Source of the DNA: Chitinophaga pinensis
Lineage (GTDB): Bacteria; Bacteroidota; Bacteroidia; Palsa-965
Direction of reading: 5' to 3'
Assembly (NCBI GenBank): GCA_943372645.1
Contig: CALRZN010000002.1
Span: 77,192 to 141,191, forward strand
DNA: 64,000 nt
Under the pieces are notes generated by a model, which searched no databases, was not told where the DNA came from, and was given only the letters and a program-made list of their open reading frames with translations. Made by a program: the position numbers and the translations under genes. Numbering within the stretch: position 1 is the stretch's first letter; each line of letters opens with the position of its first letter. Shown piece by piece: positions 18,920 to 19,720 of the stretch.

Positions 18920-18993
18920 GGGGGATTAGCTCAGCTGGCTAGAGCGCTTGCATGGCATGCAAGAGGTCATCGGTTCGACTCCGATATTCTCCA
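18920..18993 (+). tRNA. tRNA-Ala (anticodon GGC)
   Basis: Manual fold: acceptor GGGGGAT/ATTCTCC with G3:U70, D-arm GCTC/GAGC, anticodon stem CTTGC/GCAAG, loop ATGGCAT (GGC), T-arm ATCGG-TTCGACT-CCGAT, discriminator A. Near-identical to bacterial tRNA-Ala(GGC). CCA is not encoded. Confidence 0.88.
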
Positions 18994-19000
18994 CGACTTA

Positions 19001-19037
19001 AACCTGTTCATTCCATTGGACAGGTTTTTTGTTTTTT
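19001..19037 (+). terminator. Terminator hairpin after tRNA-Ala
   Basis: cctgt…acagg stem followed by ttttttgtttttt. The same element recurs after the tRNA-like copy at 19589..19627. Confidence 0.55.
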
Positions 19038-19047
19038 ATACCATTTG

Positions 19048-19115
19048 TTGGAAGCGCTTGCTTGTCCCGACAGACGTCGGGAAAGAGGTCAGCGGTTCGA
19101 CTCCGATATGCTCCA
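19048..19115 (+). pseudogene. tRNA-Ala-derived fragment with anticodon arm replaced by cccgac-agac-gtcggg hairpin (copy B)
   Basis: ttggaagcgcttg + cttgtcccgacagacgtcgggaaag + aggtcagcggttcgactccgatatgctcca. Lacks the 5' acceptor strand and D-stem and has no anticodon. Followed by a degenerate copy of the terminator. Confidence 0.6.
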
Positions 19116-19188
19116 CGACTTAAACCTGTTCATTTTTGTGACCGAATTTTGTTATTTTAACCCATTAAACGGCGCGTTTGTGCCTACC

Positions 19189-19235
19189 GGCAGATGTCGG
19201 GAAAGGGAGCTGAGGCTCCTCTCCAATATGTTCAA
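19189..19235 (+). pseudogene. Further degenerate tRNA-Ala-derived fragment (copy C)
   Basis: ggcagatgtcgggaaag matches the replacement hairpin 3' half. The T-arm is replaced by a ggagctgaggctcc hairpin, then aatatgttca resembles the acceptor 3' strand. Confidence 0.4.
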
Positions 19236-19267
19236 ATTAACGTTTTCTTTTTTATAGTGGGCTGGTT

Positions 19268-19519
19268 ATGTCATACTTCGTGTACATCATCTTTTCTGGG
19301 AAGCTTAATAAATATTACGTCGGTTATACTGAAAATATGGAAAAACGGATCAGTGACCATATCTCCGGTATATCTGCTTTCACCTCAAAAGCCAATGACT
19401 GGGAATTAAAATACTCCGAAGCGTTTTCCTCCAGGGAAGAGGCGATGCAAAGGGAAAAATCGATTAAAAAGAAGAAAAGCAGAAAATATCTCGAATGGTT
19501 GATCAGCTCAGCTGGCTAG
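19268..19519 (+). CDS. Small GIY-YIG nuclease family protein
   Basis: 83 aa MSYFVYIIFSGKLNKYYVGYTENMEKRISDH… (GIY…YVG…R…H core). The last codons (…W L I S S A G stop) are read from a tRNA-derived 5' stub plus D-loop sequence (tggttgatcagctcagctggctag). Confidence 0.78.
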   Translation: MSYFVYIIFSGKLNKYYVGYTENMEKRISDHISGISAFTSKANDWELKYSEAFSSREEAMQREKSIKKKKSRKYLEWLISSAG

Positions 19520-19582
19520 AGCGCTTGCTTGTCCCGACAGACGTCGGGAAAGAGGTCATCGGTTCGACTCCGATATTCTCCA
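19501..19582 (+). pseudogene. tRNA-Ala-like copy D: D-arm and T-arm intact, anticodon arm replaced, 5' acceptor strand mutated
   Basis: gatcagctcagctggctagagcgcttg + cttgtcccgacagacgtcgggaaag + aggtcatcggttcgactccgatattctcca. The 5' strand ggttgat would give 2 mismatches with the acceptor 3' strand. No anticodon triplet. Followed by the same terminator (19589..19627). Confidence 0.6.
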
Positions 19583-19634
19583 CGACTTAAACCTGTTCAT
19601 TTAATTGGACAGGTTTTTTGTTTTTTAGATCAAA

Positions 19635-19720
19635 TTGTTGGGGCGCTTGTGACCATAGGGACATGGGCGACATGTCCCTATGGTCACAGGCGTCTCACGG
19701 TGCGGCAGGCTTTGCCACAA
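19635..19720 (+). repeat. tRNA-derived fragment copy E carrying a perfect 17-bp inverted repeat
   Basis: Begins ttgttggggcgcttg, like copy B. gtgaccatagggacatg (19649-19665), loop ggcga, then catgtccctatggtcac (19671-19687). Confidence 0.5.

Follow-up and report, generated by a model that had tools for sequence, protein, structure and literature searches.

Positions 18920-19720 of a 64,000-nucleotide (nt) stretch of Chitinophaga pinensis contig CALRZN010000002.1 (the whole stretch is referred to here as the window) raise the question of why a gene for a small GIY-YIG nuclease lies among defective copies of a transfer RNA (tRNA) gene and ends inside one of them. An initial annotation described a genuine tRNA-Ala(GGC) at 18920 followed by at least four related copies with exchanged anticodon arms, and saw in them repeated homing-type or integrative insertions or, alternatively, structured tRNA-like RNAs. 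Both the tRNA (copy A), which is the single tRNA called by ARAGORN in the whole 64 kb, and the four derived copies downstream of it (B to E) are borne out by our analysis. We suggest that the locus is a chromosomal selfish cassette in which a minimal UPF0213/SLX1-like GIY-YIG nuclease is combined with a cognate palindrome, here called H, that sits on copies of host tRNA genes; we give this explanation an even chance of being correct.

The arrangement extends far beyond the window. A genome scan returned 180 loci, 80 of which were kept (from Chitinophagaceae, Saprospiraceae, Sphingobacteriales, Cytophagales and Flavobacteriales), and an unbiased metagenome scan for a D-stem followed by H and AGGT gave more than 120 matches, from which 80 loci were fetched. 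The same layout recurs in these 80 genome and 80 metagenome loci, mostly from Bacteroidota: a genuine tRNA, its terminator, the GIY-YIG open reading frame (ORF), a tRNA copy starting at about position 8, H, a 3' half and a terminator. In nearly all 80 genome loci the ORF end (...RKYIEWLI) runs into a D-arm remnant, H, AGGTC, a T-arm, the acceptor 3' strand and a terminator, and canonical H lies downstream of 98 of the 108 ORFs, most others being followed by a decayed H. What had been taken for repeated local accidents is a conserved composite unit across Bacteroidota, and the homologues of the ORF number in the hundreds, nearly all of them placed between a genuine tRNA, which they follow directly, and a partial copy of it. 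In 56 ORF units (about 55 loci) the ORF is preceded, at a distance of 13-67 nt, by a genuine tRNA. Most of these tRNAs are Ala(GGC), with Arg(TCT), Val(TAC), Lys(CTT) and Met also found in the genome loci and Ile, Pro, Ala(TGC) and Ala(CGC) added by the metagenome loci. An intrinsic terminator takes up the space from tRNA to ATG in 40 of the 56 units by a strict test and in about 50 by eye; given that the ATG follows the terminator T-run directly (0-15 nt), the ORF has no room for a promoter of its own. Two of the loci, L003 and L042, have Bacteroidota-typical content and carry the labels of Bordetella parapertussis and Limnohabitans metagenome-assembled genomes (MAGs), probably by mis-binning or mislabelling.

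ORF number varies from 0 to 4 at one orthologous locus: tRNA-Ala loci linked to gltA carry one to four ORFs in L005, L009, L013 and L204 and none in L129, L124 and L150, which confirms the presence or absence polymorphism that had been proposed as a check. Tandem units of ORF plus tRNA-derived copy occur in L012, L013, L030 and L026. Among the 80 metagenome loci, 41 contain an ORF and 14 lie at contig edges; two metagenome contigs hold both kinds of locus, with and without ORF. ORF-less units, to judge from their sequence, look like internal-deletion derivatives of ORF units, and where no ORF is present, H units are either maintained in the absence of a nearby nuclease or served by one acting in trans. 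The spacers of ribosomal RNA operons also host H units (L085, L083, L140 and L153). In L085 (3836-4100) two units without ORF, each made up of H and a 3' half, come after a tRNA-Ala(TGC), and in L083 (423-920) a divergent GIY-YIG ORF, its ATG overlapping the 3' end of tRNA-Ile(GAT), precedes a near-complete tRNA-Ile look-alike (acceptor stem 5/7 pairs) with an identical H.

The palindrome itself is an 18-bp sequence, TCCCGA-N6-TCGGGA, at the anticodon-arm position of partial tRNA copies. Across 164 locus-distinct copies in a tRNA context, 97% of stem positions are Watson-Crick pairs; three stem positions show compensatory changes (T-A/C-G; A-T/C-G/T-A/G-C; A-T/T-A/C-G), and the mismatches comprise 11 G-T and 11 A-C pairs without any G-U bias. 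The centre is usually GC (nGCn). H occurs in both orientations (AAAGCATT in 24 cases, its reverse complement in 11), and orientation differs between the close relatives L009 and L010. A rule by which orientation would be set by the side of the tRNA was rejected, AAGCAT being predominant on both sides. Also rejected as a general rule was retention in H of the local anticodon loop (Lys TATTAA/TCTTAA, Val TTAC, Ala GCAT), because an identical H with the AAGCAT centre occurs in the tRNA-Ile scaffold of L083. Two junctions with the tRNA are found: in the short form H takes the place of exactly positions 27-43, and in the long form, which is that of the window, of six bases of loop and stem. Junction type and protein clade co-segregate. 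In the window canonical H is present in two copies only, both in the array, and elsewhere it clusters around tRNA. It is also found in D-loops and T-loops of tRNA copies. Some units have two palindromes, one in the D-loop (e.g. TCCCGATAGCTATCGGGA replacing A14-T16) and one in the anticodon arm (L129:2620-2860, L006, L028, L034 and L045), and units of L022, L030, L057 and L068 have one in the T-loop.

H is also a place at which units are exchanged. Two Terrimonas loci (L025:2255-2960 and L074:2125-2990) have ORFs that are about 95% identical and differ by one ORF-less unit; the crossover of this gain or loss lies inside H, and a 47-nt deletion has one end in H. On the basis of the pairing, the two orientations, the equal numbers of the two mismatches, the crossover in H and the scarcity of complete cloverleaves, we favor that H would be a site at the level of DNA, either a dimer-binding palindrome or a hairpin, over a functional tRNA-mimic RNA.

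The same data bear on the alternative that H-bearing tRNA-like transcripts are the functional partner of the protein, be it as a non-cleavable tRNA mimic or antitoxin of an RNA-cutting GIY-YIG protein in the manner of a type III toxin-antitoxin system, as a 3' structure with a stabilising or regulatory effect on the messenger RNA, or as decoys against tRNA-targeting nucleases. In accordance with such a role, L026 has at least 22 tRNA-Val-like units with H, the unit folding as a cloverleaf, and a structured element overlaps the 3' end of the ORF. A GIY-YIG-TrmH fusion has been taken as a hint of RNA metabolism for prokaryotic Slx1-like proteins (PMC1564403), and in phage, tRNA amplification counters the tRNA-cleaving defence system Septu (PMC13096335). 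Repeat arrays upstream of a nuclease gene also recall ToxIN, in which tandem structured repeats and then a terminator precede a small nuclease gene; however, the nuclease family is unrelated, PADLOC gives no match, arrays occur in a minority of loci and most units are incomplete folds. A D-arm, T-arm and acceptor stem together are possible in only 15 of about 200 units, 11 of them in L026, most units being half-molecules; the acceptor stem is broken in ORF-linked units and the D-arm is lost in many lineages. Moreover, the stem mismatches show no preference for G-U, H is used in both orientations, and Rfam matches tRNA only. The initial suggestion of structured tRNA-like RNAs is in this way mostly unsupported, and we consider an RNA-level function quite unlikely. 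The L026 array itself (132-3254, from a Saprospiraceae MAG) consists of 18 tandem tRNA-Val-like units with a 101-bp period and four more further on, which flank a genuine tRNA-Val(TAC) and three GIY-YIG ORFs; most of these units are complete cloverleaf folds with H for the anticodon arm, and ARAGORN calls them 'tRNA-Stop(tta)'.

The tRNA halves that adjoin H are copies of the tRNA of their own locus. Of 63 3' halves next to H, 42 agree with the local tRNA at every position of its 30-nt tail, while tRNA tails of different genomes differ by 3.9 nt on average; the own local tRNA is the best match for 51 of 53 copies, and at the Val, Lys, Arg and Met loci both halves derive from the tRNA of that locus. 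Since synonymous sites of the ORF are saturated, this identity is either actively maintained or the copies are repeatedly re-created. The halves are ordered: on the upstream side of the genuine tRNA, units join a perfect 5' half to H (L073, L136, L017, L112 and others), upstream arrays being present in about a quarter of loci, and on its downstream side units join H to a perfect 3' half, some having an ORF and others none. The reverse polarity (3' half upstream, 5' half downstream) was never seen in the loci examined. The largest ORF-less array is that of L073, with 22 upstream copies in units of 81 bp; unit length ranges from 80 to 400 bp overall. Upstream units in L073 and L129 end just after GGTTCGA in the T-loop, which is consistent with break sites in tRNA loops. 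None of 210 extra half-copies has a normal anticodon arm, and nearly all adjoin H or a decayed H.

These observations decide against the integrative part of the initial proposal, i.e. that the copies are relics of a tyrosine integrase, each integration into the tRNA having left a duplicated 3' part as an attachment (att) site. Integrase att duplications likewise consist of a genuine tRNA and, some distance after it, a second copy of its 3' part in direct orientation, the breakpoints falling at the anticodon or T loop, and tRNA-Ala(GGC) does serve as an integration site in relatives: L129 has an integrase-like ORF and arm-type repeats after the tRNA, and 5'-truncated copies are found in L041, L064, L069 and L071. 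However, these true att duplicates comprise the 3' part only and start at and keep a normal anticodon arm, which H units never do, having the palindrome instead; units with 5' halves upstream of the tRNA cannot arise in this way, no integrase is found near the window array, and a unit is only as long as given above. The polarity, the absence of normal arms from the half-copies and the comparison with att duplicates already contradict the integrase reading, which we regard as highly improbable. Signs of tyrosine-integrase-type integration were seen at L129:2980-3160, L041:100-215 and about 2400-2470 of L064, L069 and L071, and consist of arm-like repeats (TTTGGGTCA), the first part of an ORF resembling an integrase gene, and tRNA copies that lack the 5' part and set in at the normal anticodon arm; a GIY-YIG unit lies just beyond these att copies.

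The second component of the cassette is the protein. The initial assignment of the 83-aa (amino acid) ORF to the GIY-YIG nucleases holds: residues 3-74 match Pfam PF01541 with 66.7 bits against a cut-off of 22.6 (E = 2.4e-18), and the catalytic residues are in place, Y6, Y17, G19, R27, H31 and E63 being invariant or nearly so in 30 homologues. An indexed search gave 117 homologues and a profile search 3,473 clusters (50% identity) at E <= 1e-10. Against the PDB the profile matches BH0048 (1zg2, E = 1.1e-10), EF2693 (1ywl, 2.3e-8), SLX1 (7cq2, 4.5e-4) and I-TevI (0.11). The AlphaFold model has a predicted local distance difference test score (pLDDT) of 88.5 and a predicted beta-beta-alpha-beta-alpha-alpha fold, for which Foldseek ranks 1zg2 first, then SLX1 nuclease domains (template-modelling (TM) score 0.6-0.68), then I-TevI and UvrC. 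With UPF0213 proteins (BH0048, EF2693, YhbQ type) and SLX1 nuclease domains as its nearest relatives in sequence and predicted structure, the protein is placed by these comparisons in the UPF0213/SLX1-like clade. TIGR01453 scores 19.8 bits on it, below the cut-off of 56, the PHROGs homing-endonuclease match is weak (3e-4), and PADLOC gives no significant defence-system match (UzuA, 0.0043). In unsaturated ORF pairs the ratio of nonsynonymous to synonymous substitution rates (dN/dS) is about 0.2, and between loci the proportion of synonymous differences (pS) is 0.85, i.e. saturated, at a proportion of nonsynonymous differences (pN) of 0.32; as judged from these substitution patterns, the protein is functional, old and under purifying selection.

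SLX1 is a structure-specific nuclease for branched DNA, and by analogy a hairpin or cloverleaf DNA would be a fitting substrate here; the window protein differs from SLX1 in having neither a RING/PHD domain nor an SLX4 partner. To our knowledge the small stand-alone GIY-YIG (UPF0213) proteins are numerous and have no known function, and an association of UPF0213 proteins with tRNA or palindromes was not found in the literature searched. A large branch of UPF0213 is now tied to a concrete DNA context, with a tRNA gene, a cognate palindrome and tandem arrays, which gives a testable substrate hypothesis.

At its C-terminus the protein merges with tRNA sequence. It had been claimed that the last seven codons and the stop of the ORF are supplied by tRNA; this is true of the last four codons and the stop, the TAG of a D-loop, and not of the W-L-I that precedes them. 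The W-L-I codons coincide with the acceptor strand (5/7 pairs) and align with the C-terminal helix of BH0048; a tRNA origin of these residues was rejected, as they are a conserved part of the protein and present even where no D-arm follows. The tail after W-L-I is variable in the family, and SS[AV]G* tails are nearly always encoded with AGC and TCA and closed by a TAG stop, a near-fixation which indicates nucleotide-level tRNA sequence. Distant relatives end in RASR or EHPD, which are translated AGAGCG-TCCCG and GAGCA-TCCCGA, i.e. D-stem plus H. Odd protein C-termini such as SSAG, RASR and EHPD are in this manner translated tRNA and palindrome sequence. Distant members that end in ...RASR.., ..SEHSG or ..EHPD are P0168, P0172, P0183, P0212, P0248, P0251, P0259 and P0260, and many database entries have N-terminal extensions of 20-45 aa, probably from mis-called starts through the upstream tRNA or terminator.

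The closest functional parallel is SegB, a free-standing GIY-YIG homing endonuclease from a tRNA gene cluster of phages T4 and T6. Its recognition site is a motif in the tRNA T-arm and it cleaves within tRNA genes (PMC2330249), the breaks leading to recombination-dependent tandem segmental amplification of the tRNA plus segB unit (PMC13096335). In both cases a GIY-YIG gene lies amid tRNA genes, and the amplified tRNA plus segB unit resembles the tandem units of ORF and tRNA-derived copy described here. However, SegB is a phage protein with a DNA-binding domain, whereas the protein described here is chromosomal and, with 83 aa, consists of the nuclease domain alone; in addition, the copies described here are non-functional tRNAs with a palindrome for the anticodon arm, for which SegB offers no counterpart. 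By analogy, we suggest that the cassette may work like a SegB-type tRNA-associated selfish nuclease, the arm-replacing palindrome being without known counterpart. Measured against SegB and I-TevI as homing endonucleases, the gene shows the presence or absence at an orthologous site that a homing gene should have; the protein does not belong to a homing-endonuclease family because it has no DNA-binding domain. The initial idea of a homing-type GIY-YIG element that duplicates its target tRNA pointed in the right direction and missed that the protein is without the DNA-binding domain that defines homing endonucleases.

In its classical form, homing would mean that the nuclease cuts the normal anticodon-arm region and that H is a cleavage-resistant allele copied together with the ORF, one tRNA being kept by selection. 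The lack of a normal arm in every extra half-copy is what such conversion would leave behind; the anticodon arm of tRNA-Ala(GGC) is a perfect palindrome in all variants seen, the ORF lies at most about 50 nt from the substituted site as in intronless homing, tRNA genes are the targets of SegB (PMC2330249) and the ORF is polymorphic at orthologous loci. Nevertheless, we consider classical homing unlikely: (i) a resistant allele need not be a conserved palindrome, and yet H has arms that stay conserved, with compensatory changes, in different orders and on different tRNA scaffolds, (ii) the intact tRNA immediately upstream would stay cleavable, (iii) the normal-arm integrase-type copies beside the ORF in L041, L064, L069 and L071 are unconverted, and (iv) the protein is without a sequence-specific DNA-binding domain.

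For the selfish cassette that we favor, we propose that the nuclease, probably as a dimer, would bind and cut H, or hairpin or cruciform DNA formed by the tRNA gene, and that recombination would then repair the breaks, with the neighbouring intact tRNA gene or sister units as partners. Such repair would result in gain and loss of units, segmental amplification and homogenisation of the tRNA halves beside H, and would occasionally capture new tRNA genes. Low-level expression of the ORF would come from transcripts that read through the tRNA terminator, and the intact tRNA would be kept as selection removes cells that lose it. If this is true, nuclease-driven segmental amplification at tRNA genes, which was shown only in 2026 and for phage SegB, would also take place in bacterial chromosomes and with a minimal nuclease.

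Several points weigh against the selfish cassette. The link between nuclease and H is suggested by their co-localisation and co-inheritance. The mechanism assumes that repair restores H after the nuclease has cut its own linked site, and the first creation of H and the duplication of the tRNA at a new tRNA gene lie outside the model and are not explained by it. H units without any trace of an ORF, on contigs with room for one, make up 25 of the 80 metagenome loci. The plasmid, phage and IMG/VR collections contain no real relatives, and one flanking gene is conserved in 21 loci, so that much of the distribution could be vertical. Finally, the polarity of the halves alone is expected from any partial tandem duplication.

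Some of these points are shared by the reading in which the gene is a bystander or has been domesticated for a host function, e.g. in DNA repair, and the tRNA fragments are neutral debris of slippage or unequal crossing-over at a palindrome-prone site. The absence from phages and plasmids and the polarity of the halves would follow, the synteny with citrate synthase is partly conserved, and a host gene would be under purifying selection, as this one is. Left unexplained by a bystander are the way in which the same layout is built anew from the resident tRNA where this is a tRNA for Val, Lys, Arg, Met, Ile or Pro, the presence of the same conserved palindrome in every partial copy, H in D-loops and T-loops, and the range of ORF copy number at one locus. 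We therefore regard a bystander gene as very unlikely.

A bolder version of the selfish cassette, which we put forward tentatively and as somewhat unlikely, is that an SLX1-like, structure-specific nuclease and H make up a new class of selfish element of bacterial chromosomes. This element would recognise the hairpin or cloverleaf that tRNA-gene DNA can form and would put H in the place of entire stem-loops. The stem-loops in question may be the anticodon arm (exactly 27-43) and also the D-loop and T-loop, with nuclease-driven tandem arrays as a consequence; in a sub-variant, the arrays of anticodon-less tRNA look-alikes may be decoys against tRNA-targeting nucleases.

REP/RAYT systems (repetitive extragenic palindromes and their associated tyrosine transposases) are similar in that a single nuclease-type gene is combined with short conserved flanking palindromes. 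However, RAYT proteins are of the HUH/Y1 type and REPs are dispersed genome-wide in large numbers, whereas here the nuclease is GIY-YIG and H is confined to tRNA loci. We found no prior description of the nuclease-palindrome-tRNA arrangement in the literature searched, a search that had most subscription journals outside its scope, and the cassette looks like an undescribed selfish DNA element living on tRNA genes.

Within the window the array can be dissected into the parts listed in Table 1.

Table 1. Parts of the tRNA-Ala locus, with positions in the window.
Feature	Position	Strand	Evidence
tRNA-Ala(GGC), genuine, parent of all copies (copy A)	18920-18994	+	ARAGORN; Rfam RF00005, 61.7 bits; cloverleaf fold
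Intrinsic terminator of tRNA-Ala (AAACCTGTTCATTCCATTGGACAGGTTTTTTGTTTTTT)	19000-19037	+	Sequence; inverted repeat
Unit B, ORF-less, tRNA-derived	19051-19116	+	Sequence, alignment
Decayed terminator copy of unit B	19122-19158	+	Alignment; repeat family
Unit C, decayed, ORF-less	19170-19256	+	Alignment; fold
GIY-YIG nuclease gene, 83 aa, placed in UPF0213/SLX1-like clade	19268-19519	+	Pfam, homologues, PDB profile, AlphaFold/Foldseek, dN/dS
Unit D, tRNA-like copy overlapping ORF 3' end	19497-19583	+	Rfam tRNA, 32.1 bits; alignment; fold
Terminator copy of unit D	19589-19626	+	Sequence; loop differs from the tRNA's own terminator
Unit E, decayed, ORF-less	19639-19718	+	Inverted repeat; fold

The anticodon arm of the genuine tRNA, CTTGCATGGCATGCAAG, is a perfect 17-nt palindrome. 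Unit B consists of a D-stem/anticodon-stem remnant (GAAGCGCTTGCTTG), H (TCCCGACAGACGTCGGGA, 19065-19082) and a 3' half with two mismatches to tRNA-Ala. Unit D begins with the acceptor strand GGTTGAT (5/7 pairs) and has an intact D-arm, CTTGCTTG, H (19532-19549), AAG and a 3' half (19550-19583) that is identical to the window tRNA-Ala, with no mismatch in 31 nt; its D-arm is at the same time the 3' end of the ORF, AGC TCA GCT GGC TAG. When folded, unit D forms H and the T-arm and not the acceptor stem. Over 106 nt, copies B (19053-19158) and D (19520-19625) share 88% identity with each other; with copy A they share 70%. Unit C contains a decayed H (TACCGGCAGATGTCGGGA, 19185-19202), a T-arm remnant hairpin (GGAGCTGAGGCTCC, 19206-19219) and a T-run (19243-19255). 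In unit E a long palindrome (19639-19697) occupies the anticodon-arm position and is followed by a decayed 3' part; its 27-nt arms are 89% complementary, and it folds with -60.2 kcal/mol (z = -10.7). The right arm, a copy in inverted orientation, contains the tRNA-derived GCGCTTG, and by its sequence the palindrome resembles an inverted duplication formed by fold-back (hairpin priming) at the anticodon-arm position. Among the 160 loci, no relatives of this palindrome were found.

Held against these parts, the finer claims of the initial annotation fared unevenly. The tcccgac-agac-gtcggga hairpin is present in B and D as described, the terminator hairpin is shared after copies A and D, and the 17-bp perfect inverted repeat of copy E is real, being the core of the longer arms. 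Retention of the D- and T-arms applies to the D-arm of D and the T-arms of B and D, C and E being decayed. The ggagc...gctcc hairpin of copy C, read as an exchanged anticodon arm, aligns with the T-arm, the decayed H being at the anticodon-arm position; the hairpins of B, C and D are not assorted replacements but one palindromic element conserved throughout the family. That exactly one copy would score as a tRNA is correct for ARAGORN, which calls copy A alone; Rfam also scores copy D, with 32.1 bits against a gathering score of 29 and with H taken as a 17-nt insertion. As canonical tRNAs copies B to E fail, and B, C and E have no 5' half. Under gathering and E-value thresholds Rfam reports no family besides tRNA at the locus, weak uxuA and miRNA (microRNA) matches being due to chance, and the 64-kb window holds no further family members or tRNA fragments.

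H units also have a practical consequence for genome annotation, as they give rise to spurious 'tRNA-Stop' and 'tRNA-???' calls and to mis-typed tRNAs. In support of a Bacteroidota origin of the window, the gene upstream of the tRNA (17158-18774) codes for an ice-binding-like protein that carries a C-terminal sorting domain for type IX secretion.

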